A DNA stretch of 64,000 nt, from NCBI GenBank assembly GCA_018675685.1, contig JABGXP010000002.1:14367-78366 (forward strand), in the 5' to 3' direction. The stretch is from a bacterium. Lineage in GTDB: Bacteria; Patescibacteriota; Minisyncoccia; Moranbacterales; DUUL01. Within the stretch, counting starts at the first letter, position 1. The number at the start of each line of letters is the position of its first letter. The translations under genes were made by a program, and so were the position numbers. The notes under the pieces were generated by a model. The model made no database searches. It was not told where the DNA came from and worked only from the letters and a program-made list of their open reading frames with translations. Below are positions 34,824 to 55,904 of the stretch, piece by piece.

Positions 34824-35205
34824 GTAATGCTTGTTAATTTAATTGTAAAACATTATAGATATCTGGATGAAAAAATATTCTAGGTTTTTTTGAGTTTTTG
34901 TTTGGTGTAAGTCTTTTTTGTCTCGTTACTGTAATAATAATTCTTTTTTCAAGGAAAGGAAAGTTTTTTTGTTTTATTTTAAATAGGGCAGTGTTTTGAT
35001 CTGAAGTGATTCTCTTTGCTTCACTGATTTCATTAAGAAGGATTATGTTAATTTGAATGAATTCTCTCGCGTCGCTGTCGCTCCTTGTCCAAGGTAGCGC
35101 TGAATGCTCGCCAGCTCGCATGCAGCGGCATTGGCTATGATTATTTTTTGCTAAAAATAGCCCACCTCATGGCTACCCGTTGGAATCCCTCCTTCAAGCA
35201 CAAAT

Positions 35206-35242
35206 AAAAATAGCTACAGGCATTATGCCTGTAGCTATTTTT
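35206..35242 (-). terminator. Rho-independent terminator immediately 3' of tRNA-Ser(GCT)
   Basis: AAAAATAGCTACAGGCAT-TATGCCTGTAGCTATTTTT near-palindrome. Nearly the same element follows the second tRNA-Ser at 55870. Confidence 0.75.
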
Positions 35243-35247
35243 GTGTG

Positions 35248-35334
35248 CGGAGAGGGAGGGATTCGAACCCTCGGGACTCGTAAAAGCCCAACACCTTAGC
35301 AGGGTGCCCCTTTCAACCACTCAGGCACCTCTCC
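35248..35334 (-). tRNA. tRNA-Ser (anticodon GCT), long variable arm
   Basis: Reverse complement reads GGAGAGGTGCCTGAGTGGTTGAAAGGGGCACCCTGCTAAGGTGTTGGGCTTTTACGAGTCCCGAGGGTTCGAATCCCTCCCTCTCCG. Anticodon loop CTGCTAA. Class II variable arm. Confidence 0.85.
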
Positions 35335-38777: not shown

Positions 38778-39923
38778 ATGAGTAGTGAACAAACCTCTGT
38801 TTTTCACAAAATGAAAGATGGTTTATTCAGCGGCTTGTTTGGTGGGAATGGCAATGTCTCAGTGGGTGTTGATGTTGGTAGCGCTAGTATAAAAGTTGTT
38901 GTTCTAGAGAGAGCAGGAGAAGCAATCCATCTCAAAAACTATGCTATCGCCACAAGCAAACAAGAAATAATAAAACCAGGAACATCTGGCGTTATTTCTG
39001 AATCAGCAAGTGAGTTGATTAGAAAGACTATAAAAGAGGCGGAAGTATCAAAGAAATCGGTCCAAGCAGCGGTGCCTAGTTTCTCTTCTTTGATAACAGC
39101 AATAGAAATCCCAAGAGCAGCAGAAAAAGATATCGATGAAATAATTCAAAATGAAGCCCCAAAATATATTCCAGTTCAATTAGCGGATGTGGTTTATGGG
39201 TGGCAATTGATTGATGAAGGGTCTAAGGATGACGAAGAGGAGAAAGAAGATGCAATTCCAGGAGTTCAAAGGGATGGAAAGATACATATATTGCTAGTCG
39301 CTATTATGCGTGAGATTAGTGCTAAGTATGAAGCAGTGTTTTCGAAAGCTGGTTTGAAAATTGAAGCTTTAGAGATCGATGCTTTTTCTTTAACAAGAGC
39401 GTTAGTTGGTAGCAATACAAGTCCTCATTTAATTTTAGATATTGGACACAAGGTGTGTAATATTGTCGCTGTTTCAAATGGAAATGTACTATTGAATAGA
39501 ACGATAGACATTGCCGGTGATAGAATAACAAAGACAATTGCTAGGAGTTTGAATATTGACACTCAAAGAGCTGAACAAATCAAGCATAAAAATGGAATGA
39601 ATGCTGGTGAAGCTCAGGGCGGAACCGAGATGATTGGCCAAATCATGGATGCTGTTGTTGCGGAAATTAAAAAAACCAACAAGGCTATCAAGAAGACATA
39701 TGTTGGGATAGAAATAAGTGAAATCGTATTAACCGGTGGTGGATCGAAATTGGTTGGAATGGTTGACTATCTAAGTAAGGAGCTTGGCTTAAAAACTAGA
39801 ATAGGGGAGCCTTTCGCAGCTATTAACTATCCAGAGAGTATCCAATCTGTTATTGACGAACATGGTTCGGAGTTAGTAATTGCAGTTGGACTTGCATTAA
39901 ATGCTTTCGAGGATAAAAAATAA
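38778..39923 (+). CDS. pilM: type IV pilus assembly protein PilM, copy 2
   Basis: VGVDVGSASIKVVVLERAGEAIHLKNYAI actin-like N-terminal fold. 381 aa. First gene of the M-N-O-B-(RR)-T-C order. Confidence 0.8.
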   Translation: MSSEQTSVFHKMKDGLFSGLFGGNGNVSVGVDVGSASIKVVVLERAGEAIHLKNYAIATSKQEIIKPGTSGVISESASELIRKTIKEAEVSKKSVQAAVPSFSSLITAIEIPRAAEKDIDEIIQNEAPKYIPVQLADVVYGWQLIDEGSKDDEEEKEDAIPGVQRDGKIHILLVAIMREISAKYEAVFSKAGLKIEALEIDAFSLTRALVGSNTSPHLILDIGHKVCNIVAVSNGNVLLNRTIDIAGDRITKTIARSLNIDTQRAEQIKHKNGMNAGEAQGGTEMIGQIMDAVVAEIKKTNKAIKKTYVGIEISEIVLTGGGSKLVGMVDYLSKELGLKTRIGEPFAAINYPESIQSVIDEHGSELVIAVGLALNAFEDKK

Positions 39924-39948
39924 TCGTAAGAAGTAAAAATAAAAAAAA

Positions 39949-40494
39949 ATGGCAAAAATAAACCTCAAGTCAAATGAGATGTCTGGTAGAAGACCAAACA
40001 GTCAAGGAAGTAACAAATCTTTGGTTTTTGGAATTGTATCGTTGGCTGTGGGCTTAGCGGTTTTTGGAATGGTTCGTTATTTGACGATCCAGACTGAAAA
40101 TCAAAACGAAGAAGCTAGAGCTGAAGTTGTTCAATTAGAAAACAACATGAACACAGATGATGTGAAAAAACTCTATGACTTCCAAGATCGTTTAATTGAG
40201 ATTGAGGGTCTTATGGACAACAAAGTTTCACAAATGGAGCTTTTGGAGAAAATTGAAAGACATACCTTGCCAGCAACAAGATTCACAAAATTAGAGTTTG
40301 AAAGGCAATCCAGTAAGACAGAAATTGATGCTACAGTTGTGGTTGAAAACCACGTTGAGTTAGCAAAACAGATCGAAGCCTTTAGTTTGATTGGGAGCGA
40401 AGTAGAAAATGTGTTTTTGAGTTCCAGTAAGATTAATAGGGAGGGCTCTGGCATTGAAGGTAATGTCATCTTCTATTATAAAGATATAAAATAA
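39949..40494 (+). CDS. pilN: PilN-like pilus assembly protein, copy 2
   Basis: 181 aa, single TM after a short cytoplasmic N-terminus, coiled-coil. Position after pilM. Confidence 0.6.
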   Translation: MAKINLKSNEMSGRRPNSQGSNKSLVFGIVSLAVGLAVFGMVRYLTIQTENQNEEARAEVVQLENNMNTDDVKKLYDFQDRLIEIEGLMDNKVSQMELLEKIERHTLPATRFTKLEFERQSSKTEIDATVVVENHVELAKQIEAFSLIGSEVENVFLSSSKINREGSGIEGNVIFYYKDIK

Positions 40495-40532
40495 AGAGAT
40501 ATTTATTTTAAATAAAAAATAAAAAATAAAAA

Positions 40533-41312
40533 ATGAAATTAAAAATTCTTTTCTTTCCAATTGCTCTTTTTGTAGCTTTCATGATAACAATCTTTTTTAC
40601 AAAGCCAGAGTGGGATATTTATCAAGAAAAGCAAGAAGAATTAACTAAATTAACAATGGAACTGGACGACTTAAAGAGCGGAAATGCCTCCATTGAAAAT
40701 GCCACAAAAAAATTCAACAGCCTAACTCCAGATCAAGAAAGTTTGGTTTTAAATGCTATTCCAAGCGAAGAGAAGAACGATGACTTCTTGGCTGAGGTGC
40801 ATAAAAGTGCTGAAACAAGTGGTGTTTTTATTATATCCACAAAAATAAAGAACCCTCAAATCAATAGAGCAAATAGGAATATTCTTCCTGGTTCTCTCGC
40901 AAGTATGACTCCAACCAGGACTGGTGTTACTGCAGAAGTTTCGGTGATGGGTTCATATATTGATATTGCTGAATTTGTTAAAGAAGTCGATTCCCACAAT
41001 AGATTCACCACACCAAGAGAACTTTTGATTATTGAACAGCAAGTAATAGCTGATGTTGCAGAGGAGGAGATTTCCGTAGAAAATGGTTCAATGATAAAAT
41101 GTGAACTAACCTTTGATTTCTTTAGTAAGGAGAAAAACGAAAAGTTACAAATTGCAAATTTGATTAGAGCGAATGACCCAGTTATTAAGAGCTTGTTGAG
41201 TGGCCAATTTAAAACAGGGATTATTGAGGATTATCAAAACTCTATTACCAGGGAAGTATTTAGACCTGTTAGTGCTGGAAGTGCAGGCAAGGAAGACATT
41301 TTCTCTAGATAA
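40533..41312 (+). CDS. pilO: PilO-like pilus assembly protein, copy 2
   Basis: 259 aa, N-terminal TM, coiled-coil (EKQEELTKLTMELDDLK). Position between pilN and pilB. Confidence 0.5.
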   Translation: MKLKILFFPIALFVAFMITIFFTKPEWDIYQEKQEELTKLTMELDDLKSGNASIENATKKFNSLTPDQESLVLNAIPSEEKNDDFLAEVHKSAETSGVFIISTKIKNPQINRANRNILPGSLASMTPTRTGVTAEVSVMGSYIDIAEFVKEVDSHNRFTTPRELLIIEQQVIADVAEEEISVENGSMIKCELTFDFFSKEKNEKLQIANLIRANDPVIKSLLSGQFKTGIIEDYQNSITREVFRPVSAGSAGKEDIFSR

Positions 41313-41357
41313 TTTTGAAGCTAAGTAAGAGGTGATTAAATAAAAAACAAAAGATAA

Positions 41358-43064
41358 ATGATTCGAGATAGCGAAAAAGACGTAGTAAATTGGAAAGAAG
41401 TCAAGCTTGACAAAAGCCTTGCTAAATTACTTCCAGTTGATTCGATCAAGAAATATAAATTTATACCATTCGAGGAAACAGCAGATAGCATTAAAGTTGC
41501 TGTAGTTGACAGAACGGATGTAAACACGCAGAACGCCCTACGTTTTTTTGTTCAGAAAAACAAAAAAAGGATAGACATTTTTCCAATATCAGAATCAGAG
41601 TTTAATCTTTTATTGGGAAAGTTAAAACACTCTTCCGCAGAAATTAATAAATTTTTATCAGCATTTGAAGAGTCTTCACAGATAGATGAAAATGAAAAGG
41701 CTGAATTGGCAAAAAAGAAAGGAGGAGGTGTTGGGGGGATTCTAAAGGATGCTCCCGTTGCAAAAATGGTAGAAGTGATCATCAAGAATGCAATTGATGG
41801 CCGAGCTTCTGATATCCATATTGAACCAATGGATGATTATGTGAGGGTTCGGTATCGTGTGGATGGTATTTTGTATAATAGTATTTCGTTACCACAAAAA
41901 ATAGGCCCAGCAATTGTTTCAAGAATCAAAATTCTATCGAATTTGAAAATTGATGAAAAGAGGAAACCACAGGATGGTAGATTTAGAATTAAAGATTTAG
42001 GACAAACAATTGATTTTCGTGTCTCAACCTTTCCAGTTTCATATGGTGAAAAGGTGGTGATGCGTATCTTGGATACCAGATCTGGTATTATTGGACTTGA
42101 TAAACTTGGGGTTGAAGGACGAGATGATAAGTTGATTAGGAAAATTATTGAGGAGCCACATGGGATTATTCTGGTTACTGGACCAACAGGAAGTGGAAAG
42201 TCTACAACGTTATATTCAATATTAAACATCCTAAACAGAGAAGGGATTAACATTGTAACACTAGAAGATCCTGTCGAATATGTATTGGAAGGAGTGAATC
42301 AAAGTCAGGTTAAACCGCAGATCGAATACACCTTTTCATCTGGGCTAAGAAGTATTTTGCGTCAAGATCCAGATGTTATTATGGTTGGAGAGATTCGAGA
42401 TGAGGAAACTGCTGAGCTTGCAATTCATGCTGCATTAACAGGGCATCTTGTTCTCTCAACTTTACATACAAATTCTGCAATCGGAGCTATTGCACGTTTA
42501 GTAGATATGGGTATCCAACCATTTTTATTAGCATCTTCCCTTAATCTTTTAATTGGGCAAAGACTCGTTCGGAGAATCTGTCCAAAATGTAAAAAAGAAG
42601 TTGAAAATTTATCAGTTGGAGCGAAGAAAATGATAGAGCGAGAGTTGCAAGATATGCCAAAACAAGGGCTTGAGAGAGTAGGAGCTAAAACAGCTAAGGA
42701 TGTTAAGGAGATCAAAGCATTTGAAGGAGAAGGATGTTCTGAGTGTCAGAACAAAGGAGTGAAAGGGCGTGTTGGAATCTATGAAATGGTTGAGGTTACA
42801 GAAGAGGTGTCGTCTCTTATAGGGAGTGGTTCACCAGAAACAATCATTGAGAAAGCTGCTAAAAAAGATGGGTATACAACAATGAAGCAAGACGGTATAA
42901 TTAAAGTGTTAGAGGGGTACACAACAATAGAAGAGGTTCAGAGGGTTACTGATGAAGACGCTAACAGTGAAGAGTTGGAGAATCAAACAACCGGAGAAGA
43001 GACGGTTATTGAGGATGCAGACAAGGAAATTTCAGGAGATGATAAAAAAGAGGTTAATCTGTAA
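41358..43064 (+). CDS. pilB: type IV pilus assembly ATPase PilB (GspE family)
   Basis: N-terminal GspII_E N domain. Walker A VTGPTGSGKSTTLYS. Asp box. Walker B VIMVGEIRD. C-terminal tetracysteine (CPKC...CSEC). 568 aa. Confidence 0.9.
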   Translation: MIRDSEKDVVNWKEVKLDKSLAKLLPVDSIKKYKFIPFEETADSIKVAVVDRTDVNTQNALRFFVQKNKKRIDIFPISESEFNLLLGKLKHSSAEINKFLSAFEESSQIDENEKAELAKKKGGGVGGILKDAPVAKMVEVIIKNAIDGRASDIHIEPMDDYVRVRYRVDGILYNSISLPQKIGPAIVSRIKILSNLKIDEKRKPQDGRFRIKDLGQTIDFRVSTFPVSYGEKVVMRILDTRSGIIGLDKLGVEGRDDKLIRKIIEEPHGIILVTGPTGSGKSTTLYSILNILNREGINIVTLEDPVEYVLEGVNQSQVKPQIEYTFSSGLRSILRQDPDVIMVGEIRDEETAELAIHAALTGHLVLSTLHTNSAIGAIARLVDMGIQPFLLASSLNLLIGQRLVRRICPKCKKEVENLSVGAKKMIERELQDMPKQGLERVGAKTAKDVKEIKAFEGEGCSECQNKGVKGRVGIYEMVEVTEEVSSLIGSGSPETIIEKAAKKDGYTTMKQDGIIKVLEGYTTIEEVQRVTDEDANSEELENQTTGEETVIEDADKEISGDDKKEVNL

Positions 43065-43075
43065 TAATAAACACA

Positions 43076-43453
43076 ATGAGTGAGAAGGCAAAAAAAATAC
43101 TTGTGATTGAGGATGATAAGTTTATTTCAGAAGTGTATATCGCAAGGCTCTCGAAAGAAGGTTTTGAAACAGTGCTTGTTGGTGACGGAGAAGCTGCTAT
43201 AAAAAAAGCTAAAGAAGAGACACCAGACTTGATTCTGTTGGATATTTTTATACCTAAAATCGGAGGAATGGATGTCCTGAGGGTTTTGAAAGAGAAAGAT
43301 GAAACAAGGAATATTCCAGTTGTCATGTTAACTAATGCCACGGAAGAAGAATATATCGATAATGCGATGGGGATGGGAGCTGTGGATTATCTAGTTAAAT
43401 CAAACTACACTCCAGAGGAGATTGTCCATAAAGTGCTTGAACATTGCAAATAA
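43076..43453 (+). CDS. single-domain response regulator (CheY-like receiver)
   Basis: KILVIEDD...DLILLDIFIPKIGG (phospho-acceptor Asp)...VVMLTNATEE...K. 125 aa with no output domain. Confidence 0.8.
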   Translation: MSEKAKKILVIEDDKFISEVYIARLSKEGFETVLVGDGEAAIKKAKEETPDLILLDIFIPKIGGMDVLRVLKEKDETRNIPVVMLTNATEEEYIDNAMGMGAVDYLVKSNYTPEEIVHKVLEHCK

Positions 43454-43495
43454 AGATGCAGGGAATGATTAAAACAAAAATTTAAGACTATAAAA

Positions 43496-44575
43496 ATGAA
43501 AGAGAGTCAATTAGCACAAAAACTTAAGAAACACTTGGCAAACGTTGTTCAAAATAATGGTTCAGACTTGCATTTATCTGTAGGAGATTATCCAATTATG
43601 AGAATTGATGGGGTTTTGTATAGGCTAAGCAAGGAAGAGATAATTAGCCATGATGACATGGATTCTCTCTCAGAATCATTGTTGAATAAAAAGCAGATGG
43701 AAAAATTCTTAGCTGAAATGCATGTTGATTTTTCGCTTGAAATTGATTCTCAGGACCGTTTTAGGGCCAATATGTTCCATCAAAAAGGACACATCAGCTT
43801 AGCACTTAGATTTATTCCGAAAGAGATTAGATCGCTTGATGAGCTTGGAGTTCCAGATGTTGTCTATGATTTTATCAAGAAAACACAAGGACTCTTATTG
43901 CTAACAGGGCCAACAGGTCATGGAAAGTCAACAACTCTGGCAGCTTTAATTGATCATATTAATCACAACAGACAAGAACATATCGTTACAATTGAGGACC
44001 CAGTTGAATATCTCCATCATTCCGATCAATGTTTGATTGAACAGCGAGAAATTGGGAAAGATGCATTAGATTTTGGCAGTGCCCTGACAGCTTGTTTTCG
44101 TGAAGATGTTGATGTTGTCTTGGTCGGTGAGATGAGGGATCTTGAAACTATTTCTACTGCCATTACGGCAGCGGAAACAGGGCATCTGATCCTTGGAACC
44201 TTACATACAAATGATTCAGTTCAAACCGTCGATCGTATTATCGATGTTTTCCCTGCTTATCAACAAAATCAAATACGCTTTCAGCTTGCAAATGTGCTTC
44301 TAGGTGTTGTTTCTCAAAGATTGTTAAAAAAGATTGGTGGCGGAAGAGTCCCGGCGGTTGAGGTACTGATCAAAAATCGTGCCGTTGAAAATTTAATTCG
44401 CCAAAATCAAACACATCAAATTGGTGTGACCATTGAAACCTCGTTAGAAGATGGAATGATTGGAATCAATCGAGCTTTGGCAAATCTAGTTAAGGAGGGA
44501 CAGGTAACCTTAGAGGATGCAGAAATGTACTCCACGGATGTTAATTCATTTAGAATGTTACTTGAAACAGCATAA
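43496..44575 (+). CDS. pilT: twitching motility (pilus retraction) ATPase PilT
   Basis: LLLTGPTGHGKSTTLAALI Walker A, VLVGEMRD Walker B, GHLILGTLHTN His box. 359 aa. Confidence 0.9.
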   Translation: MKESQLAQKLKKHLANVVQNNGSDLHLSVGDYPIMRIDGVLYRLSKEEIISHDDMDSLSESLLNKKQMEKFLAEMHVDFSLEIDSQDRFRANMFHQKGHISLALRFIPKEIRSLDELGVPDVVYDFIKKTQGLLLLTGPTGHGKSTTLAALIDHINHNRQEHIVTIEDPVEYLHHSDQCLIEQREIGKDALDFGSALTACFREDVDVVLVGEMRDLETISTAITAAETGHLILGTLHTNDSVQTVDRIIDVFPAYQQNQIRFQLANVLLGVVSQRLLKKIGGGRVPAVEVLIKNRAVENLIRQNQTHQIGVTIETSLEDGMIGINRALANLVKEGQVTLEDAEMYSTDVNSFRMLLETA

Positions 44576-44611
44576 TTTTATTAATAAAGCAAAATTCATT
44601 AAATTTTAAAA

Positions 44612-45820
44612 ATGAAATTTAAATACAAAGCACAAAACAAAGGAGGTCAATTACAACAAGGTATCGTAGAAGCATCCTCCACACGTTCCGCAAAAGAACT
44701 TTTGATTCAAAATGGTTTGTCGATTGTCTCTTTGGATGAAATTAAGGAGGTACCTCTTATTTCTAGTCTTTTGAGGATTTGGGAAGGCGTTAGACCAAAG
44801 GAGTTTGTGATTTTCGCAAGACAACTATCAACTCTTATTGATTCCAAGGTTCCACTTTTATCAGCACTGCATTCGATTGCCAATCAAACCGAAAATAAAT
44901 ATTTCGCTTTGAAGATAAATTCTGTAATTGTTGATATTGATGGAGGTTCCTCCTTATCAGAGGCAATGGCCAAAAACCCTGAAACATTCACTCAGTTTTA
45001 TGTGAATATGGTGAAAGCCGGAGAGGCGTCCGGAACGCTTCAAAAAGCTCTCAATGATTTGGCTGACAACACAGAAAAAAATTATGAGTTGACAGCAAAA
45101 TTAAGAGGGGCGATGTATTATCCTGGCTTTATTTTGGGTGCGATGATTGTAGTTGGTTTTGTAGTAATGGCCTTTGTTATGCCAAAACTCTTAGTGATTC
45201 TAAAAGAGTCGAATGTAGAGCTTCCTTTGCAAACAAAGCTTTTGATAGCCATAAGTGATTTTATGGCTAATTATTGGTGGGCTGTTGGAATCGCCATGAT
45301 TTTTGGAATTTCTGGAGTGATGTATTATATTAAAACTGACGAAGGAAAAAAAGAATTTGATCAACTTATCTTGAAAATACCGATTATCAAAAAAATCTTA
45401 CATAACGTTTATATTGCACGTTTTTCTGAGAATCTTTCAACTTTGATTCAAAGTGGTTTGCCGATTACTACAGCACTTTTAATCACCTCTGATGTTGTTG
45501 GGAACCATGTTTACAAAGAAATTATCAGAGAGTCTGCAGAGGAAATTAAGAAAGGTGGAGGAATTGCTGATGTTTTGAATAAATATGAAATCATACCACC
45601 AGTGGTAGTGCAAATGGTTAGAGTCGGTGAACATACAGGGAGAATCGAATTCACTCTTAGTAGGGTAACCAAATTTTATTTAGCAGAAACTGATCGTATG
45701 GTGAAAAATTTCTCAACTTTAATCGAACCGATTTTAATGGTTATTTTGGCAGTTGGCGTAGGACTCTTAGTTTCTGCTGTGCTTTTGCCAATTTACCAAG
45801 TTGCTACTTCAATTACTTAA
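44612..45820 (+). CDS. pilC: type IV pilus inner-membrane platform protein PilC (GspF family)
   Basis: Two T2SSF repeats, three TM regions, 402 aa. Conserved position after pilT. Confidence 0.9.
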   Translation: MKFKYKAQNKGGQLQQGIVEASSTRSAKELLIQNGLSIVSLDEIKEVPLISSLLRIWEGVRPKEFVIFARQLSTLIDSKVPLLSALHSIANQTENKYFALKINSVIVDIDGGSSLSEAMAKNPETFTQFYVNMVKAGEASGTLQKALNDLADNTEKNYELTAKLRGAMYYPGFILGAMIVVGFVVMAFVMPKLLVILKESNVELPLQTKLLIAISDFMANYWWAVGIAMIFGISGVMYYIKTDEGKKEFDQLILKIPIIKKILHNVYIARFSENLSTLIQSGLPITTALLITSDVVGNHVYKEIIRESAEEIKKGGGIADVLNKYEIIPPVVVQMVRVGEHTGRIEFTLSRVTKFYLAETDRMVKNFSTLIEPILMVILAVGVGLLVSAVLLPIYQVATSIT

Positions 45821-45841
45821 TTTTCCCAAAAAAAGGTTTTG

Positions 45842-45850
45842 TGCTAGAAT
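45842..45850 (+). promoter_or_regulatory. possible extended -10 promoter (TGcTAGAAT) for the first pilin gene
   Basis: TG-n-TAGAAT about 78 nt upstream of the pilin ATG, which has a good SD (AGGCGGGTGA). Confidence 0.3.
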
Positions 45851-45927
45851 AGCTAGGTAAACATCAAAAAGAAAAAGTGATTTAATTTGTATAACTCAAA
45901 AATGAAAATAGAAAGGCGGGTGAAAAA

Positions 45928-46341
45928 ATGAAATTGATAAATAAAAATGAAAAAGGATTTACGCTAGTTGAGCTTTTGCTTGTAATTGCGATTATTGGAG
46001 TCTTAGCTGCCGTACTTTTTGTTTCACTTGGACGACAACGTGAAAGAGCAAGAGTTTCTGCTTTCAAACAACAGATGAGAGCACTAGTCCCTGTTATTAC
46101 AACTTGCCGAGATTCAGCTGGTACAATTCTGGCAGCAGGAAATGGAACAGCAGTTTGTAACCCAGCTGGGAATCATGGACTTCATCTAACTAATGACGCA
46201 AGAGTTGACTGTGATGGAGCTGGATCGTATTCAGTCGCAACATCAGGCACGGAAGGTGTTCTGGGAAGCTGTAATACAACAGCAGGAGTCTGTACTGCCA
46301 CATGTGATCCACAAGGATGCGTTTATGCTAATTGTGATTAA
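45928..46341 (+). CDS. type IV pilin (prepilin-type N-terminal cleavage/methylation domain), Cys-rich globular domain
   Basis: Class III signal: [21 protein letters not shown] (G-1, F+1, E+5). 137 aa. 9 Cys in the C-terminal domain. Confidence 0.8.
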
Positions 46342-46478
46342 CATTGAGCATTGAATTCATTTGTTTGAAGATCTAGATCATTAAACAACTGGATTTCCAA
46401 AGAAACATTTTTTGGAAATTCAGCGTTTGATTGTCTCTCTCTGGGAGTAGAGAATATAAAAAATAATAAAGGCGAGAA

Positions 46479-46910
46479 ATGAAAACAAAACAAATTAGCG
46501 AAAGGGGTTTTACATTGATAGAGCTTTTAACCACCGTTGCAATTATCGGTATTTTAGCTTCAACAATTTTTGTTTCTTTGAGTGGGCAGAGAGATCGAGC
46601 GAAACTTGCTTCAGCAATGGAAAGTGGAAGAAGCGTGATTCCATCAGCTGTTGACTGTTTTATGACAAACAAGCAACTAACTGCTTGGACGAGTGCATCG
46701 ACCGGAGGGAATGCCATTTGCGCTGGAAGCACTGGTGTTTGGCCAAGCCTTGGTGATACCGATTGTGTTTATGAAAACTTAGATGACACAAGCGCAGCAA
46801 CTGGTAACAAGAGGTGGAGAATAAATTGTGATAGCGGAAGTTCATTTGTTTCCTGCTTTGCAAAGGACGGTAATTGCTGTAAATCAGATGCATCATATGT
46901 TTGTAATTAA
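46479..46910 (+). CDS. type IV pilin-like protein
   Basis: RGFTLIELLTTVAIIGILAS prepilin motif. Cys-rich C-terminus containing a VWPSLGDTDC motif. Confidence 0.75.
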   Translation: MKTKQISERGFTLIELLTTVAIIGILASTIFVSLSGQRDRAKLASAMESGRSVIPSAVDCFMTNKQLTAWTSASTGGNAICAGSTGVWPSLGDTDCVYENLDDTSAATGNKRWRINCDSGSSFVSCFAKDGNCCKSDASYVCN

Positions 46911-46927
46911 TTTATTATCTCAAGGCA

Positions 46928-47371
46928 ATGCAATTTAGATTAAATAAAAAAGAAGAAGGCTTTACGTTAATTGAGCTGTTGCTAACTATGGCTATTATTT
47001 CAATTCTTGCAGGAACAATCTTGGTTTCCGTGTCTGCTCATAAACAAAGAGCTGAGGAATCAAGAATGCAGGCACAACTTGCAGGTGCAATTCAAAATAT
47101 GGTACTTTGTCGAAGTGATGGAGGTGCTATTGCTGAACCAAATGGAACAGCTGGCGGTGCGAGTATTTGTAGTTTAGGCGCTAGTTATGGTAGTTGGCCA
47201 ACAACTGGGGGATCTACTGGTTTTGGAGGTTATGTGAGTGATACTGATTTTGAGGATGGTGCTTGGTTCGTTTACACACAGGATTCAAAGGCTAGAATTT
47301 GTTGCAACAGTGGAAGCAATCAATGTAGCCACTTATTGAACAGCGAAGCTTGTACAAATATAACACCCTAA
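46928..47371 (+). CDS. type IV pilin-like protein
   Basis: EGFTLIELLLTMAIISILAG prepilin motif. Cys-rich C-terminus containing a SWPTTGGSTG motif. Confidence 0.75.
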   Translation: MQFRLNKKEEGFTLIELLLTMAIISILAGTILVSVSAHKQRAEESRMQAQLAGAIQNMVLCRSDGGAIAEPNGTAGGASICSLGASYGSWPTTGGSTGFGGYVSDTDFEDGAWFVYTQDSKARICCNSGSNQCSHLLNSEACTNITP

Positions 47372-47389
47372 CATTAATTATCAGTAGTA

Positions 47390-48211
47390 ATGGAGATATT
47401 GTTTTTCATAAAAGCTGCTTTTTTGTTTCTGTTGGGAACTATTTTTGGTAGTTTTGCTAATGTATTAGTGGATCGTGGAGAAAGAAAAGAAAGTTTACTA
47501 GGTTCTTCTCATTGTGACTTTTGCAAAAAAGATCTTCGGTGGTTTGAGAATATTCCTGTTTTGGGATATTTTTTTGTAAAGGGGAAGTGTTCGAAGTGTA
47601 AGAAAAAACTGTCCTTCCAGTACCCAATGGTTGAGTTTTGTATTGGCCTTTTATTTCTTGCGGTTGGATTCAAGACAGGTTTAATTCTTACGCTCAGTAG
47701 TAGCTGGTCAATTATTTTTGAAACAAGTTATTTTTTAGCAATTATCTTTATCCTAAGCGCTATATTTATTTGGGATTTAAAATATATGATAATTCCAGAT
47801 AGATTAGTGTTAACAGGTGCCGTACTAACTGTGGTCTATACTGTGGTTCAGTACCTTAACTCTAGTTGCTCAATTTTTTCCATTAGTTGTTTTGTGACAG
47901 AAAACTTACTTGGCGCATTGCTTGTAGGCGGATTTTTTCAAGCTTTATTTGTTATTTCGAAAGGAAAATGGATTGGTGGCGGGGATGTGAAAATTGGCTT
48001 TTGGCTAGGATTTTTGATAGGATGGAAGCATGTATATCCCTTTTTGCTAATAACTTATGTTGTTGGTGCGATAATATCTTTAATTTTAGTAAAAAAATCG
48101 AAAAAAGGCTGGAAATCACAAATACCATTTGGACCTTTTCTGGTGATTAGTAGTTTCATTTTTTTGTTTTTTGGAGAAAAGTTGTTATACTTATACGAGA
48201 GATTATTTTGA
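47390..48211 (+). CDS. pilD: prepilin peptidase (A24 family, PilD)
   Basis: N-terminal tetracysteine CDFC...CSKC. Catalytic Asp motifs IIPDR and GGGDVK. Multiple TMs. 273 aa. Confidence 0.8.
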   Translation: MEILFFIKAAFLFLLGTIFGSFANVLVDRGERKESLLGSSHCDFCKKDLRWFENIPVLGYFFVKGKCSKCKKKLSFQYPMVEFCIGLLFLAVGFKTGLILTLSSSWSIIFETSYFLAIIFILSAIFIWDLKYMIIPDRLVLTGAVLTVVYTVVQYLNSSCSIFSISCFVTENLLGALLVGGFFQALFVISKGKWIGGGDVKIGFWLGFLIGWKHVYPFLLITYVVGAIISLILVKKSKKGWKSQIPFGPFLVISSFIFLFFGEKLLYLYERLF

Positions 48212-48801
48212 TCATTCATTCAAACGTGAAAAATAAAAAAACAAATAAAAATTTAAACAAAGGGTTTACATTGATTGAATTGGTTGTTTCAATTGCAATG
48301 GTGACGATTTTGTCGACCGTAGTTTTGAAGATTTCCCGTTTTTCTGACACACACAAAAGCCTAACACTAGCAAGAGACGAAGTCCGTGTGGCAGTTCGAA
48401 TGGCGCAAAACTCTTCTTTGTCGATTCCAAATCCCGAGCAAAAACATATTTGTGGATATGGTTTGTATATTGAAGACAATAAAACATATAATGTATTTTA
48501 TACTTACATAAGCGACAGCGATTTTAGTGATAACCCGAACACTTGTCAGGAAGAGGCAAGTTACCGTTCGTTTAATTTGGTGGACAGCGCTCAAGTAGCG
48601 GAGATTAGTAGCAGAAAGTTGGGCGATGCCCTTATTTTTACCTCACATATTGGAGAGAGTATTTTTTTTAGAGTTCCATATAGTGAACTTTTCGGTGATA
48701 ATGGAGAGTTATTAGCATTCGATTTCGTAATTGATATTCAAAATACAAATGTTGGTGCAACAAAATCTGTTACAATTAACAATGTTGGGAAAATAGAATA
48801 G
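48208..48801 (+). CDS. minor pilin-like protein (prepilin-type N-terminus)
   Basis: KGFTLIELVVSIAMVTILS. ATGA overlap with pilD. Confidence 0.65.
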   Translation: MIIHSNVKNKKTNKNLNKGFTLIELVVSIAMVTILSTVVLKISRFSDTHKSLTLARDEVRVAVRMAQNSSLSIPNPEQKHICGYGLYIEDNKTYNVFYTYISDSDFSDNPNTCQEEASYRSFNLVDSAQVAEISSRKLGDALIFTSHIGESIFFRVPYSELFGDNGELLAFDFVIDIQNTNVGATKSVTINNVGKIE

Positions 48802-48816
48802 TAGTTAAGTTAAAAA

Positions 48817-49347
48817 ATGAAAAGCAATTTATTTAAAAAACAAAACATAGACAAAGGTTACACTTTAATTGAAGTGATTTTAGTCATTGCTATAACAGGA
48901 GTTACATTCACGACTCTTTACAGTCTTTACGCAAGTACTGTCAAAAGAAGTGTGGACAGTAGATATGAAGTAATTGCTTCAAATTTAGCGCAAGAGGGCG
49001 TTGAGATTGTTCGAAACATTCGTGATGAAAATGTAATGTTAAATAGGGATATCAACGATAGTTTAACTGGAGCCTGCAGGCCATATTTTAGAGAGGGAAC
49101 TCCGAATCCAGAATGTGATAACAATAGAAAGAACGAAGTTGAATTGGAAGCGGGAGTTTATCGAAACTGCTCCTTGGCCGGTTGTGTTAATCCAGATAAG
49201 GTGGTTTTTGAAAGAATCTGTAATATTGGAGGAAACATTGAGCGCATGGTTGTTACATGTACAGTTAGTTGGGATAGCTTTGTGAACGTAGCTATTAGTA
49301 GAAGCGCGGATGCAACAGTCACATTAAGTGATTGGCAAAGTAATTAA
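48817..49347 (+). CDS. minor pilin-like protein (prepilin-type N-terminus)
   Basis: KGYTLIEVILVIAITGVTF. Confidence 0.65.
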   Translation: MKSNLFKKQNIDKGYTLIEVILVIAITGVTFTTLYSLYASTVKRSVDSRYEVIASNLAQEGVEIVRNIRDENVMLNRDINDSLTGACRPYFREGTPNPECDNNRKNEVELEAGVYRNCSLAGCVNPDKVVFERICNIGGNIERMVVTCTVSWDSFVNVAISRSADATVTLSDWQSN

Positions 49348-49358
49348 TTTAAGTAGGA

Positions 49359-49940
49359 ATGAAAACAGCAAAACACAAACAAAAAGGTTTTTCATTGATT
49401 GAAGTTCTTGTTTCAATCGCTATTTTTTCAGTTATAGTTGGGGGTATTCTACTTTTCAGCATTAGAACAATTGAAGCTCATACAAAGACTCAAGCAATGC
49501 AAAATGCATTAGAGAATGCACGTTTTGCAATTGAAAAGTTGAATAAAAAAATTAGAACAAGTAAAGAAATTAATGGTGATGATGGTATTGTGACGAGTTT
49601 AACAGGAAGTAATGAAGTTTTTTTTGTTGATAATGTAGACGCAACTAAACAATGTTTCAAGTTTGAAAATGATAAATTGTTTTTTGACGCGATAGACGCT
49701 GACAGTGATGCTGTTAATTGTTCTCATGCTGATTTTAACAATTTTGAAGCATTGATCGGCTCAGATGATGGGAAGATCAAGGTGAGTGGTGAATTTATTC
49801 TAAGACAAACTGATTCAGTTCAAAATGACCGTGGTTTTGTTAGAACCGTGGTCACGATTAAATATAATGACGCCTCAACAATGGTAACTGAGAAAGATTC
49901 TGTTACGATCCAATCTGGCGTTTCATTACGTGATTACTAG
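49359..49940 (+). CDS. minor pilin-like protein (prepilin-type N-terminus)
   Basis: KGFSLIEVLVSIAIFSVIVGG. Confidence 0.65.
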   Translation: MKTAKHKQKGFSLIEVLVSIAIFSVIVGGILLFSIRTIEAHTKTQAMQNALENARFAIEKLNKKIRTSKEINGDDGIVTSLTGSNEVFFVDNVDATKQCFKFENDKLFFDAIDADSDAVNCSHADFNNFEALIGSDDGKIKVSGEFILRQTDSVQNDRGFVRTVVTIKYNDASTMVTEKDSVTIQSGVSLRDY

Positions 49941-49963
49941 GTTTGTAAGAAAAAAACCACTAA

Positions 49964-50806
49964 ATGCATATGAAAATAAAAAGAATAGCTAAAAAGATGG
50001 AAGAGAAGAATGTTTTTGTAAAAAACAAAAAGCCAAAGCAAGCACAACAAGGGTCTGCCATTGTTTTGATGGTGCTAGTTTTAGTTAATGCACTTATTAT
50101 TGTTTCTGTGATTGCCTCAATTTCCTTGGTTGAGGGGAGAATGAGTTCTAATATTAAGAATTCAACACCAGCCTTTCAGGCTGCTGATTCAGGAATTGAA
50201 TGGGTGCTAAAGACAATCGGTGATGAAAATGATTCAAGTAAAATGATCTCAGAAGTTTTTGGGAGTTTGGCCGGTGATGGAAAATTCGATTGTCCCGCAG
50301 GAGATGTTGGGGGTGTGATTTGCGAGTTATATTTTATCCAAGCAACCGGAGAAGTTATTACCAATGAAGACACAGCAATCTTGGAAATTGATTCAGTGCG
50401 TTCAATCGGACGAAGAGGTACAGACGATCAGGCAGTTAGTCGTGCAGTTGAAGTCTCTTTGGCGATAGCAGGATGTCCAAGCGGATATGAAGAGATTTCT
50501 GATTTTTGTATTGAGGTCGATGAACACACTGACAGCGATGATAATGTAATCGAACGTTCTTTTGAGGGAGCAGCTGATTCTTGTTTTGAAGTTGATGCCA
50601 GACTTTGCACAGCCGCAGAGTGGTCATCTGCTTGCCAAATGAGCGCTGTTGTTGGACTTAATGATATGGATGATAACTGGGAGAGGGTTGATGATTTAGC
50701 AACCAAAAACAGAGCAGCCATATTCGGATTTGCTGATTGCGATGATGTTGAAGAGCAGTCGTTAAATAACACACATCGGTTCCGTTGTTGTATGAATACG
50801 AATTAA
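49964..50806 (+). CDS. PilX_N-like protein fused to a C-terminal ~110-aa 8-Cys domain (first of three paralogs)
   Basis: N-terminus QQGSAIVLMVLVLVNALIIVSVIASISLVEGRMSSNIKNSTPAFQAADSGIEWVL fits the PilX N-terminal pattern. C-terminus CPSGYEEISDFCI...ARLCTAAEWSSAC...RFRCCMNTN. Confidence 0.55.
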   Translation: MHMKIKRIAKKMEEKNVFVKNKKPKQAQQGSAIVLMVLVLVNALIIVSVIASISLVEGRMSSNIKNSTPAFQAADSGIEWVLKTIGDENDSSKMISEVFGSLAGDGKFDCPAGDVGGVICELYFIQATGEVITNEDTAILEIDSVRSIGRRGTDDQAVSRAVEVSLAIAGCPSGYEEISDFCIEVDEHTDSDDNVIERSFEGAADSCFEVDARLCTAAEWSSACQMSAVVGLNDMDDNWERVDDLATKNRAAIFGFADCDDVEEQSLNNTHRFRCCMNTN

Positions 50807-50817
50807 ATACATAAAAA

Positions 50818-51300
50818 ATGAGAAAAATTATTAGTAAAAATTTAGCGACTGCAACTTTTATTGTTTGCACCCTGTATATTGCTATTTTTGTATTTTCAAG
50901 AGTGGATTCAATCCAAAAACAAAATAATGGAAAATTAAGTGGGCAGGCGAATGCAGCCTATGAATGTGCCTCAGGATATATTGAGGTAGCCGACTTTTGC
51001 ATACAGAGCGAAACAGCGGGGGATGAAAATTGGCATGATGCAGCGTTGGCTTGCGCTCAAGATGAGGAGGCTAGACTTTGTAAAGCGCAAGAGCTTATGG
51101 CTGCTTGTCAGGCAGAGCATCAAGACGGCACTTCTTTTGACGATAATATTGATGGTGGTGGCTGGGAGTGGGCGGATGATATTGACAATCGCAATGAGGC
51201 CACTGTTATGTTTAGGAATAACAATAATTGCAAGGCAATGAATAAAAGAAATCTTTCTGGTAGTTCGAATGATTTCCGTTGTTGTAAAAATAGATATTAA
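50818..51300 (+). CDS. secreted Cys-rich protein, paralog 2 (N-terminal TM/signal plus the shared 8-Cys domain)
   Basis: CASGYIEVADFCI...ARLCKAQELMAAC...DFRCCKNRY aligns with the C-termini of the flanking genes. Confidence 0.55.
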   Translation: MRKIISKNLATATFIVCTLYIAIFVFSRVDSIQKQNNGKLSGQANAAYECASGYIEVADFCIQSETAGDENWHDAALACAQDEEARLCKAQELMAACQAEHQDGTSFDDNIDGGGWEWADDIDNRNEATVMFRNNNNCKAMNKRNLSGSSNDFRCCKNRY

Positions 51301-51302
51301 CA

Positions 51303-51821
51303 ATGAAAAAAATGCAAAAGGGAAAGAAATTGAAAAAAATATTTAAAAAAGGAGCATTGAAGATAACTGGGGTTGCGCTCATTGTTCTTGCAACAGTTGC
51401 GGTTATTGGCTTTGAGCGTTATAATAAGAACATTGGTATTGATATCAAAGCTGCTTCGGATGGATGCCCCTCTAGTGATTGGGTTCCAATTGGTGATTTT
51501 TGCATCATGGATGATTTGCTTAGTGGTGGAGCTGAAAAATGGGGTGAGTCAGTGTATAGCTGTCTCGATGAGGAAGATGCAAGACTCTGTACTGTAGGAG
51601 AATGGATGGAAGCTTGTAGATTAAACGAAGGTAATATTATATCATTGGACCACATGGAAGTTGATGGAACGGATGACTATGAATGGACTGGAGACATTGA
51701 AAATGCTGGGACCAAGAAAGCTATAACGATTGGAAAAAATGGTTGTGGTGACATTAAAAATGAAAAAATTCTTAATGAGGATCGTGACAGAAGATGTTGT
51801 ATAAATAGAGCACGAATATAG
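51303..51821 (+). CDS. secreted Cys-rich protein, paralog 3
   Basis: CPSSDWVPIGDFCI...ARLCTVGEWMEAC...RRCCINRARI. N-terminal TM (ITGVALIVLATVAVIGF). Confidence 0.55.
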   Translation: MKKMQKGKKLKKIFKKGALKITGVALIVLATVAVIGFERYNKNIGIDIKAASDGCPSSDWVPIGDFCIMDDLLSGGAEKWGESVYSCLDEEDARLCTVGEWMEACRLNEGNIISLDHMEVDGTDDYEWTGDIENAGTKKAITIGKNGCGDIKNEKILNEDRDRRCCINRARI

Positions 51822-51888
51822 AAAAACAGTAAACAAGGGAAGTAATTAAAATAAATAAAAATATGATTATAGAAGAGGAGGTGACACA

Positions 51889-52299
51889 ATGAAACAAAAT
51901 AAAGAAAAAGGATTTACGCTAGTTGAACTCTTAGTTGTGGTTGCAATTATTGGTATCTTAGCTGCGATTGTTTTGGTTAGCTTGAACAGTGCACGTGGTC
52001 GTGCAAGACTTGGTTCACTTCAAGCAACATTAGCCTCAACAACAACATTAGCAGCTTTATGTACTAATGACGGATCTAGTGTTAGTACTCCAACTTCAGC
52101 GACTGTTGGAGGTGGGGATATCTGTGACGATACTTCGATCACAGCTGAGGTTTGGCCATCACTACAAAGCCAAAGTTTAGGAGGATCAAATTCTCCTTAT
52201 TCGTATACTACAACAAGTGATACTACAGTCTCTTCTTCAGACTCTGCTGGTGTTGCTGTTACTTGTACTGTTGCGACCGGAAGTTGTATTAGAAACTAA
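51889..52299 (+). CDS. type IV pilin (prepilin-type N-terminus) with Ser/Thr-rich C-terminal half
   Basis: [26 protein letters not shown]. Strong SD GAGGAGGTGA. EVWPSLQSQ motif. S/T-rich tail (possible glycosylation). Confidence 0.8.
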   Translation: MKQNKEKGFTLVELLVVVAIIGILAAIVLVSLNSARGRARLGSLQATLASTTTLAALCTNDGSSVSTPTSATVGGGDICDDTSITAEVWPSLQSQSLGGSNSPYSYTTTSDTTVSSSDSAGVAVTCTVATGSCIRN

Positions 52300-52347
52300 T
52301 TCCGTTGCGAGTGTTTTATGCGCTATAGCGCGTAACGAAGAATTAGC

Positions 52348-52379
52348 AAAAAAGACTTCAATTGATGAGGTCTTTTTTG
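52348..52379. terminator. Rho-independent terminator closing the pilus locus
   Basis: AAAAAAGAC-TTCAATTGATGAG-GTCTTTTTT. Preceded by a 12-nt perfect palindrome GCGCTATAGCGC at 52317-52328. Confidence 0.6.
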
Positions 52380-52454
52380 TTTACAATAAATCTTTCCTGA
52401 TGTATTATTAGGGTGTCAGAGTATTTAAAAATTTAAAAATTAAAAAATTAAAAA

Positions 52455-53003
52455 ATGGTAATTTATATTTTACTGGGGATTATCGTCGTGACCGTTGTTT
52501 GGTTTATTGCTGTGTATAATGGTTTGATTAAGTTTAGAAATAGAGTTGACGAAGCCTGGAGTGATATTGGAATTCAACTAAAAAGGCGCTATGATTTGAT
52601 TCCAAATCTTATCAACACAGTAAAGGGGTATGCAAAGCACGAAAAGGAGTTAATGGAGAATGTGACTAAGGCTCGAACAGAAGCCATGGGAACGCAGAGT
52701 CCAAAAGAGAGTGCCGAAAAGGAAAATATGCTTTCTGATACATTGAAATCACTTTTTGCCGTTTCTGAGAATTATCCAGACTTGAAAGCTAATCAGAATT
52801 TTTTGGAACTCCAAAGAGAATTAACTGATACAGAGGATAAAATTCAAGCTTCTAGAAGGTTCTACAATGGAAATGTTCGAGATTTCAATACAAAATTGCA
52901 AGTTTTTCCAACGAATATGATTGCCGGGATGTTGAAATTTAATGAGTACGATTTCTTTGAAATTGAAGAAAAGGAAAAAGAGAACATAGAGGTAAAGTTT
53001 TAG
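52455..53003 (+). CDS. lemA: LemA family protein
   Basis: N-terminal TM then YNGLIKFRNRVDEAWSDIGIQLKRRYDLIPNL, the canonical LemA motif. Confidence 0.85.
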   Translation: MVIYILLGIIVVTVVWFIAVYNGLIKFRNRVDEAWSDIGIQLKRRYDLIPNLINTVKGYAKHEKELMENVTKARTEAMGTQSPKESAEKENMLSDTLKSLFAVSENYPDLKANQNFLELQRELTDTEDKIQASRRFYNGNVRDFNTKLQVFPTNMIAGMLKFNEYDFFEIEEKEKENIEVKF

Positions 53004-55776: not shown

Positions 55777-55865
<89 letters not shown>

Positions 55866-55869
55866 ACAT

Positions 55870-55904
55870 AAAAATAGCTATAGGCTTTATGCTCATAGCT
55901 ATTT
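55870..55904 (+). terminator. Rho-independent terminator after tRNA-Ser(GGA), paralogous to the one at 35206
   Basis: AAAAATAGCTATAGGC-TTTATGC-TCATAGCTATTT. Confidence 0.7.

Follow-up and report, generated by a model that had tools for sequence, protein, structure and literature searches.

The type IV pilus operon in the 64-kb stretch of DNA that we analyzed (hereafter the window) contains three consecutive genes sharing a C-terminal eight-cysteine domain, and we consider it probable (roughly 60%) that this triplet forms the adhesive head of the pilus, composed of a modular PilX tip adhesin and two partner paralogs. Little is known of host recognition by ultrasmall episymbiotic Patescibacteria, and experimental access to it is so far limited to PilX2, a tip pilin of one Saccharibacterium. 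The locus adds a second candidate recognition head, which is compact, differs in structure and comes from a lineage without cultured members.

Gene triplet and its shared domain

All coordinates given here refer to the + strand. Gene 1 (49964..50806; 280 aa) was classified as a PilX/GspK-type modular minor pilin with a C-terminal C-type-lectin-like (CLec) domain on the basis of its ORF, Pfam match and AF2 model; NCBI calls an alternative start, giving 278 aa from the ATG at 49970. Its 8-Cys CLec domain occupies residues 171-280 (50474..50803). Gene 2 (50818..51300), a 160-aa paralog defined by its ORF and by BLASTP to genes 1 and 3, consists of a 19-aa hydrophobic anchor (approximately residues 9-27), a 20-aa linker and the CLec domain (residues 50-160; nt 50965-51297). 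The ORF of gene 3 (51303..51821) encodes a 172-aa paralog with a 20-aa hydrophobic segment (approximately residues 18-37), a linker and the CLec domain (residues 55-172; nt 51465-51818). The C-terminal ∼115 aa of the three proteins are paralogous (pairwise BLASTP E-values of 1e-13, 6e-14 and 7e-18; 31-34% identity), and a search of the six-frame translated window with an HMM of the domain gave exactly three hits, all of them in the triplet. Thus, the ORFs, BLASTP and HMM results bear out the initial annotation, which had described three adjacent genes with a common C-terminal domain of ∼110 aa; only the intergenic gaps, given there as 12 and 3 nt, have to be corrected to 11 nt (genes 1 and 2) and 2 nt (genes 2 and 3). 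The short gaps that separate genes 2 and 3 from the preceding ORF, and the lack of a Shine-Dalgarno sequence for either, suggest coupled translation of the triplet.

The motif skeleton previously read from the three sequences (C..DFCI, ARLC-x3-E(W/L)-x2-AC, EW and RCC-x-N) is kept in homologs. All eight cysteines were invariant or nearly so in 43 sequences, and 42 out of 42 complete domains had exactly eight cysteines. In the wider family, the same number was found in 173 out of 193 domains, and the domain was located at the C-terminus in 184 out of 193. The eight cysteines probably form four disulfides per domain (with putative pairing). Each of the three domains is strongly acidic; the net charge is −19 for gene 1, −12 for gene 2 and −14 for gene 3 (22-27 Asp and Glu vs 7-13 Lys and Arg residues).

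The domain had at first been assigned to no named family, which holds insofar as no Pfam or NCBIfam model covers it; neither FGE-sulfatase (PF03781) nor Lcl_C/DUF1566 (PF07603) matched the three window proteins. However, its fold is recognizable. Modeling predicts a CLec fold (beta-beta-alpha-alpha-beta5) with significant structural similarity to solved CTLDs, and the domain is homologous to the tip of Bd2740: the family profile matched Bd2740-CTD (8oks_B) with an E-value of 6.8e-7 and six Cys columns aligned. A PDB profile search with only the three window domains gave no match, and the match appeared only with the broader family profile. One family member (P0141) combines Bdello_MAT_N, an N-terminal fiber module, with the same C-terminal 8-Cys domain. 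Trimers are formed by each of Bd2740-CTD, Lcl-CTD and Mtd of a Bordetella phage, which are nearest to the domain in structure. The calcium/sugar motifs EPN, QPD, EPS, EPD and WND were not found in the three proteins, and EPN/QPD and WND are likewise absent from Bd2740, Mtd and Lcl. Without EPN/QPD and WND, the triplet proteins are not calcium-dependent C-type lectins in the strict sense, and the ligand class is therefore not fixed by motif.

The domain family is large, with 1015 representatives at E ≤ 1e-3 (∼1000 clusters at 50% identity). A profile check for constant co-occurrence of the domain with pilins gave a negative answer, as just 3 out of the 144 best representatives contained PilX_N. 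The domain is not specific to pili, most family members being unrelated to them.

Type IV pilus operon and scaffold of gene 1

The operon is complete; it begins with the pilus machinery, which is followed by three minor pilins, then by the triplet and a last pilin. According to Pfam scans, the machinery (38778..48211) comprises PilM, an ORF at the PilN position without Pfam match, PilO, PilB, a response regulator, PilT, PilC, three Cys-rich pilins and the prepilin peptidase PilD. The three minor pilins (48208-48801, 48817-49347 and 49359-49940; span 48208..49940) contain the prepilin motif G-F/Y-(T/S)-L-I-E and match Pfam N_methyl, and NCBIfam gave weak PilV, GspH, GspI and ComGE/F matches; gene 1 completes the usual quartet of core minor pilins. 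Behind the triplet (51875..52299), the Shine-Dalgarno sequence GAGGAGGTGA (51875-51884) precedes a 136-aa pilin (51889-52299; N_methyl E-value 1.7e-10); no other operon gene has a strong Shine-Dalgarno. The N_methyl matches and the sequence thus confirm that the triplet is flanked by three minor pilins on one side and by this pilin with its strong Shine-Dalgarno on the other, as initially annotated. No terminator-like site was found within 47300-52600.

The N-terminal part of gene 1 (residues 29-79; 50048..50200) matched Pfam PilX_N (PF14341) with 27.7 bits, exceeding the gathering score of 25.5 (E-value 2.7e-6; profile positions 1-51), and the PilX_N-type N-terminus that had been proposed for the first copy is therefore well founded. 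We found 15 orthologs of gene 1; PilX_N was matched in all 15 fusion orthologs scanned (E ≤ 5; best 1.6e-9), and its helix is 91% identical among 11 of the gene 1 orthologs. The N-terminal helix, QQG|SAIVLMVLVL, has Leu at +5 and no Glu5, and continues with NSTPAFQAADSG. The class III motif IPR012902, which was used in the survey of Raynaud et al. (2021), is absent from gene 1, and a scan against NCBIfam gave a weak GspK match. The AF2 model (pLDDT 84) shows a helix (residues 29-85), a beta-sheet (105-163) and the CLec domain (170-278). Gene 1 is a modular pilin in which a CLec domain is grafted on PilX_N and a small pilin-like sheet. In relatives (P0044, L018), a Laminin_G_3 (LamG) module replaces CLec on the same PilX scaffold.

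Conservation and selection in related genomes

The relatives that bear the triplet belong to a small clade of Patescibacteria, the nearest named ones being labeled Candidatus Moraniibacteriota. Synteny of the triplet is kept in six loci, down to 34-45% identity, and the order of minor pilins and triplet is conserved in six related loci. In every genome having the small paralogs, genes 2 and 3 are strictly adjacent to, and nearly overlap with, gene 1. One locus (L016) contains the PilX-CLec fusion and lacks the small paralogs, and in another one (L019, a single 4.3-kb contig) the PilX-CLec gene is directly followed by one in which paralogs 2 and 3 are fused in frame (P0045). The small paralogs diverge somewhat faster than gene 1 (59-65% vs 67-78% identity; dN 0.24-0.26), and the N-terminal region of gene 2 is conserved as much as its domain (62-63% identity).

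Comparison of the window with two related loci (L011 and L001) gave dN/dS values of 0.03-0.22 for all operon genes, with dS being saturated (1.1-2.4 or undefined). Judging from these alignments, the triplet genes appear to be under purifying selection, and the triplet is old, its genes being orthologous across lineages at 34-78% identity. The initial annotation had suggested a diversifying family, which finds no support in an old orthologous triplet whose dN/dS is ∼0.1-0.2 with saturated dS and which has, in the window, no template repeat of a diversity-generating retroelement (DGR). The gene-wide ratios do not support diversifying selection, and the 90% clusters, with only 2-5 sequences over 12-30 contigs, contained too few variants for an analysis of microdiversity; near-identical copies recur in many samples.

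Proposed role and alternative explanations

A putative mechanism for the adhesive head can be outlined as follows. First, having a helix without Glu5 and a small sheet, the gene 1 product would be placed at the tip, atop the three minor pilins that bear Glu5. Second, its CLec domain would bind a host-surface ligand, either a glycan or a protein; such binding is most likely because the calcium-independent bacterial branch to which the domain belongs includes the Bd2740 tip, Lcl-CTD and Mtd. Third, the products of genes 2 and 3 may associate, as partner subunits, with the domain borne by PilX. Finally, pilus retraction would draw the cell onto the host. A host-attachment or tip-adhesin module had been proposed from the beginning and is still the best-supported reading, although the general idea is already described for the PilX-like pilins of TM7x.

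The three domains might even complete a 1:1:1 pseudo-trimeric CLec head, similar to the homotrimeric heads of their relatives. We put forward only tentatively, as a possibility, that the pilus tip bears such a heterotrimer of one PilX-borne domain and two non-pilin membrane-anchored paralogs. If true, it would explain how a single-copy tip pilin gets around the homotrimer that is normal for its domain family, and would show the adaptation of a trimeric fiber-tip module to a filament tip that holds single copies per subunit. It would also be the first pilus adhesin in which a pilin is assembled with detached paralogs of itself, and would imply that an episymbiont (Patescibacteria) and a predator (Bdellovibrio) seize other bacteria via the same recognition module. 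The presence of the fusion without small paralogs in L016 means that the fusion can work without the partners. The small paralogs look anchored in the membrane, which they would have to leave with the pilus, a point against partnership.

Another scenario is that only gene 1 is pilus-borne, and that genes 2 and 3 encode independent membrane-anchored (type II) receptors or adhesins of the cell body that form no complex with PilX; these might take over the ligand after retraction or bind another ligand. This would be consistent with their hydrophobic N-termini (19-20 residues), which resemble membrane anchors and have no conserved Gly-1 or prepilin-peptidase site. Pfam PilX_N matched neither protein, and an HMM of PilX N-termini, searched against 63 targets (best E-value 0.013; most at ∼0 bits), did not separate the small paralogs from the other hydrophobic N-termini of the window. 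The occurrence of the fusion alone in L016 and the faster evolution of the small paralogs also fit independent receptors. However, strict adjacency and near-overlap with gene 1 wherever small paralogs exist speak against this scenario, the fused paralogs 2 and 3 of L019 show that at least these two act jointly, and trimerization is obligate in the nearest homologs of the domain. On balance, we regard independent receptors as unlikely, while giving this scenario serious weight. When inspected by eye, the N-termini of the small paralogs (...SF.E(R/G)K...) look like the ...ISLVEGRMSS... of PilX, a resemblance that would suit truncated PilX_N pilins but was given no weight here.

Type IV pili take up DNA in many bacteria via minor pilins, which is a common role in Patescibacteria. 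The initial annotation offered, as a second option, a DNA-capture module; the tip CLec domains would then bind extracellular DNA for natural transformation. The strongly acidic character of all three domains makes this option very improbable, and no DNA binder was found among the CLec relatives, the closest of which are cell-surface adhesins. A DNA-binding tip as the main function was rejected on the basis of the charge.

CLec and FGE-like domains are the usual variable proteins of DGRs, which are abundant in Patescibacteria, and mutagenesis of the loop before RCC would make the triplet a DGR target. However, a template-repeat-like copy of any part of the triplet is absent from the window, where repeats of 49964-51821 were limited to short RCC ends and pilin N-termini, the whole genes appear to be under purifying selection and near-identical copies recur across samples. 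This candidate was rejected, as the direct repeats of the whole window included no template repeat, and we give it hardly any credence. The same is true of an FGE/EgtB-like enzyme domain (sulfatase-modifying or sulfoxide-synthase type) acting on pilins or the host surface: sub-threshold FGE-sulfatase matches were seen in 4 out of 43 family members (best E-value 0.008; none for Lcl_C), but the Pfam cut-off was not reached, the domain has ∼110 aa vs ∼260-280 for FGE-type catalytic domains, all eight cysteines are best explained as structural disulfides and the top matches are small adhesin heads.

Comparison with known systems

The arrangement of minor pilins, PilX, non-pilin proteins and a last pilin resembles the fimU-pilVWXY1Y2E cluster of Pseudomonas aeruginosa. 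PilY1, a non-pilin adhesin, associates with the minor-pilin tip complex, as in the priming complex of Myxococcus xanthus (PMC7541494). Whereas PilY1 has ∼1000 aa and a beta-propeller, the triplet genes at that position encode CLec proteins of 160-172 aa that are paralogous to the C-terminus of PilX.

Modular pilins occur widely, and lectin modules are found among their grafts (PMC8179133). Gene 1 is similar to PilB (vWA) and PilC (ConA-like lectin) of Streptococcus sanguinis in having a C-terminal binding graft, which is thought to be tip-exposed (PMC8179133, PMC9934059); however, PilB and PilC possess a canonical class III signal peptide (IPR012902) with Glu5, whereas the scaffold of gene 1 is of the PilX_N/GspK type. 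A CLec graft with accessory paralogs is not among the modular-pilin architectures quoted from these two sources.

It is already known that Patescibacteria have PilX-like pilins with lectin-like C-terminal modules for host binding. In TM7x (Nanosynbacter lyticus, Saccharibacteria), both PilX1 and PilX2 contain such modules, and binding to the host requires PilX2 (PMC11623550). As in TM7x, gene 1 encodes a PilX-like pilin without a canonical PilD signal, which is the largest of its locus and ends in a lectin-like module. The modules themselves are different: those of TM7x are a beta-jelly-roll (L-type-lectin-like) and a seven-bladed beta-propeller, whereas that of the triplet is CLec. Moreover, stand-alone module paralogs were not reported beside PilX1/PilX2 (PMC11623550) but are present in the triplet.

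With regard to the domain, predator cells display Bd2740-CTD (PDB 8OKS) on their surface as a CLec tip that is trimeric and free of calcium, and prey entry is slightly slower when it is deleted (Caulton et al., 2024; PMC10769870). Bd2740 is a homotrimer that ends a long trimeric MAT (mosaic adhesive trimer) fiber of Bdellovibrio bacteriovorus and contains Bdello_MAT_N. In contrast, the triplet domain resides on a PilX-type pilin and two short anchored proteins, that is, on three different paralogs without a MAT N-domain; NCBIfam MAT (NF053851) did not match genes 1-3, the proteins of which have only 160-280 aa. The C-terminal domain of Legionella Lcl (DUF1566/Lcl_C, PDB 8Q4E) is also a trimeric adhesin head (PMC11162425), but it has no disulfides, is basic and binds sulfated GAGs, whereas the triplet domains have eight cysteines and are strongly acidic. 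The locus connects modular pilins, the prey-recognition fiber tips of Bdellovibrio and a ∼1000-cluster 8-Cys CLec family that Pfam and NCBIfam do not model. The small CLec domain, probably locked by disulfides, would lend itself to expression and to screens against glycans or envelopes of hosts. Richness in disulfides does not set the triplet apart, as all exported pilus proteins of the operon are Cys-rich.

A tandem gene triplet in a type IV pilus operon

Three consecutive ORFs on the same strand, gene 1 (49964-50806; 280 aa, or 278 aa if translation begins at the ATG at 49970), gene 2 (50818-51300; 160 aa) and gene 3 (51303-51821; 172 aa), were confirmed as a tandem triplet with a common 8-Cys domain in a pilus operon. 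The gaps between them measure 11 and 2 nt, rather than 12 and 3 nt as initially annotated. Several other observations of the initial annotation were borne out. The three genes are paralogous through their C-terminal ~115 residues (BLASTP E 1e-13 to 7e-18, 31-34% identity), and an alignment of 43 homologs reproduced the motif skeleton C..DFCI, ARLC-x3-E(W/L)-x2-AC, EW and RCC-x-N, with eight Cys that were invariant or nearly so. The PilX-like N-terminus of gene 1 matched Pfam PilX_N above the gathering score. Exactly eight Cys were present in all 42 complete domains, and searching the six-frame translation with the domain HMM revealed exactly three copies in the window. Gene 2 has a ninth Cys inside its hydrophobic N-terminal segment.

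A complete type IV pilus system encloses the triplet, in the order PilM, an ORF at the PilN position (no Pfam match), PilO, PilB, a response regulator, PilT, PilC, three pilins, PilD, three minor pilins, the triplet and a last pilin. The proposed flanking by pilins was supported by prepilin N_methyl motifs in the three genes upstream and the one downstream, and the strong Shine-Dalgarno sequence (GAGGAGGTGA, 51875-51884) was confirmed before the downstream pilin (ATG at 51889). This last pilin is the only gene of the operon with a strong Shine-Dalgarno sequence, whereas genes 1-3 have none. No terminator-like sites could be found between 47300 and 52600. The response regulator is a stand-alone receiver gene (43076-43453), whose position between pilB and pilT is kept in related loci (L001 and L003).

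Every exported pilus protein of the operon (45928-52299) is rich in Cys, and the number of Cys in the exported part is always even (8, 8, 6 and 4 in the pilins; 2, 6 and 2 in the minor pilins; 10 in the PilX fusion). Machinery proteins of the cytoplasm and membrane contain 0-4 Cys. For an organism that lacks a periplasm, this implies that disulfides form extensively outside the cytoplasm.

Identity and distribution of the shared domain

No Pfam or NCBIfam model reached its cut-off on the shared domain, and the members of the family gave only weak matches, to UL45 (C-type-lectin-like), DUF7495 and FGE-sulfatase. For the gene 3 domain, a confident AlphaFold2 model built on the 43-sequence alignment (pLDDT 87.8, pTM 0.82) displayed a beta-beta-alpha-alpha-beta5 topology and was matched by Foldseek to 8oks_A (TM 0.73, normalised to target), the C-terminal tip domain of the Bdellovibrio MAT fibre Bd2740. 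The C-terminal third of a full-length gene 1 model yielded the same structural matches. The kinship with Bd2740 could be seen in sequence as well: a profile of 36 diverse family members matched 8oks_B (E 6.8e-7), with six Cys columns aligned in the matched stretch. None of the three proteins contains the calcium/sugar motifs EPN/QPD and WND, which are likewise missing from Bd2740, Mtd and Lcl (PMC10769870, PMC11162425). On the basis of the fold, the Bd2740 profile match and the lack of calcium motifs, the domain is a calcium-independent bacterial C-type-lectin-like (CLec) domain, a divergent member of a known superfamily and not a new fold. Thus, its initial description as possibly undescribed holds with respect to the curated libraries (Pfam, NCBIfam), but not with respect to the CLec superfamily, where structure and profile place it.

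Gene 1 encodes a minor pilin of the PilX/GspK type onto which a CLec domain is grafted; along with its PilX_N match, the N-terminus has Gly followed by a hydrophobic helix lacking Glu5. It has the CLec fold and the architecture of a modular pilin. Assignment to calcium-dependent C-type lectins was rejected because EPN/QPD and WND are missing, and membership in FGE-sulfatase, Lcl_C or MAT fibre families was also rejected.

With a word-seeded search, no more than 28 small proteins and 16 PilX fusions were recovered. The exhaustive HMMER search, covering 1.84 billion representatives, identified 1015 at E ≤ 1e-3 and 332 at E ≤ 1e-10. The triplet therefore leads to a large family (about 1000 clusters at 50% identity) that neither Pfam nor NCBIfam has curated. 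Among 193 retrieved sequences, the domain was located at the extreme C-terminus in 184 and had eight Cys in 173. PilX_N was present in just 3 of the 144 best representatives, so a tie to PilX is not general; some of the 144 had collagen repeats or P domains of the proprotein-convertase type, and for the majority no Pfam match at all was obtained. One of the 144, P0141, is a Bdello_MAT_N fibre with the 8-Cys CLec domain. The C-terminal position and varied carriers, few of them with PilX_N, indicate that the domain is a general head module of surface proteins and fibres, not a pilus-specific invention. Many members are about 255 aa long and have, besides a signal peptide, an N-terminal domain of 150 aa that lacks annotation (among P0045-P0188; for example, P0100, P0075 and P0085). 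In others, the domain ends collagen-like, P-domain or fibre-like proteins of up to 1886 aa, and some members have two tandem copies.

Conservation and evolution of the triplet

Related loci came from MAGs labelled Candidatus Moraniibacteriota or Patescibacteria group. The triplet and the whole operon order were kept in L001/L015, L012 and L011 (67-78% identity to the window for gene 1, 59-65% for genes 2 and 3) and in the much more distant L007/L013 and L008/L014 (44-45% and 33-38%, respectively). In a neighbour-joining tree, the gene 2 and gene 3 orthologs of both sublineages each formed their own clade, indicating that the duplications are old.

Variants were also observed. In L016, the PilX-CLec fusion is followed directly by the pilin, without the small paralogs, so these are dispensable in at least one lineage. 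In protein P0044 and in L018 (3660-4979), Laminin_G_3 (ConA-like lectin) replaces CLec on the same PilX scaffold (PAFQAADSG motif), which shows that modules on the tip pilin have been swapped among related lineages. In L019 (3139-4020; one 4.3-kb contig only), the PilX-CLec gene precedes a single 293-aa protein, P0045, an in-frame fusion of an anchor with gene 2-type and gene 3-type CLec domains in which the second anchor is deleted. It should be noted that L016 and L018 have Patescibacteria-type operon synteny, yet are labelled 'uncultured Bdellovibrionales'. In addition, the terminal 138 nt of JABIYX010000011.1 (L017, 1-138) are 100% identical to the PilX gene (window 50155-50292); only this end of the contig, from a MAG labelled Methanobacteriota archaeon, matches, probably reflecting an assembly chimera or mis-binning.

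Among 11 orthologs of gene 1, identity was 91% in the N-terminal helix, 69% in the pilin-like head and 64% in the CLec domain. The anchor region of gene 2 was conserved like its domain (62-63%), and the hydrophobic segment of gene 3 was poorly conserved (27%). Variation was greatest in the segments following DFCI and helix 2 and in the loop that precedes the final RCC. For all operon genes dN/dS was 0.03-0.22, with dS saturated against the closest loci; the family had been called diversifying, but no sign of gene-wide diversifying selection was observed. Diversification as DGR targets was ruled out here, since the window has no template-repeat-like copy.

Proposed role of the triplet

Three minor pilins bearing Glu5 are encoded immediately upstream of gene 1, and together the four make up the usual core set of minor pilins. 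Sets of this kind prime pilus assembly and come to lie at the tip, where the GspK/PilX-type subunit is topmost (PMC7541494, PMC8179133), and modular pilins present a grafted module for binding (PMC8179133). In the Saccharibacterium TM7x, PilX-like pilins carry lectin-like modules and host binding requires PilX2 (PMC11623550). Bd2740-CTD forms the tip of a prey-recognition fibre: a trimeric CLec domain, free of calcium and displayed on the surface, whose largest pockets point outwards from the fibre. Prey entry is slightly slowed when it is deleted (PMC10769870). By analogy, the CLec domain of gene 1 would be the ligand-binding head of the pilus, serving host-cell attachment.

Genes 2 and 3 probably encode subunits that partner the PilX-borne domain. 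They lie tightly behind gene 1 without their own Shine-Dalgarno sequences, which suggests coupled translation; they always occur together and, in one genome, form a single fusion gene; and the domain family is normally trimeric (Lcl-CTD and Mtd also form trimeric heads; PMC10769870, PMC11162425), whereas the tip holds one PilX. The most economical arrangement, a 1:1:1 heterotrimeric CLec head built from genes 1, 2 and 3, can be put forward only tentatively. The hydrophobic N-termini of genes 2 and 3, roughly 20 residues long, resemble membrane anchors, and a role of these two proteins as receptors on the cell body would fit equally well. Overall, we assign a probability of about 0.6 to a tip adhesin with partner paralogs. 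As to the ligand of gene 1, a glycan or surface protein appears most likely; DNA, as in the DNA capture initially considered, is unlikely because the three CLec domains are strongly acidic (net charge -19, -12 and -14).

Compared with known systems, the Bd2740 tip domain belongs to the same domain family but has a different carrier. Gene 1 shares its architectural principle with TM7x PilX1 and PilX2 and with the modular pilins of S. sanguinis, but the folds grafted there are different ones. In Pseudomonas-type operons, the pilX-pilY1-pilY2 segment uses the same operon slot for non-pilin tip partners, although the proteins are unrelated. In text searches limited to open-access papers, neither a pilin with a CLec module nor neighbouring genes for detached paralogs of a pilin's module could be found. 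The triplet offers a good and testable starting point for studying how uncultured Patescibacteria recognise their hosts.

Other features of the window

In the regions 35201-35334 and 55777-55904, two tRNA-Ser genes (anticodon GCT on the minus strand and GGA on the plus strand, respectively) each have a similar 40-nt palindromic hairpin directly after them; the hairpins are 85% identical and probably represent a common terminator or processing element. A bacterial class A RNase P RNA was identified at 19200-19574 (Rfam, 142.8 bits).
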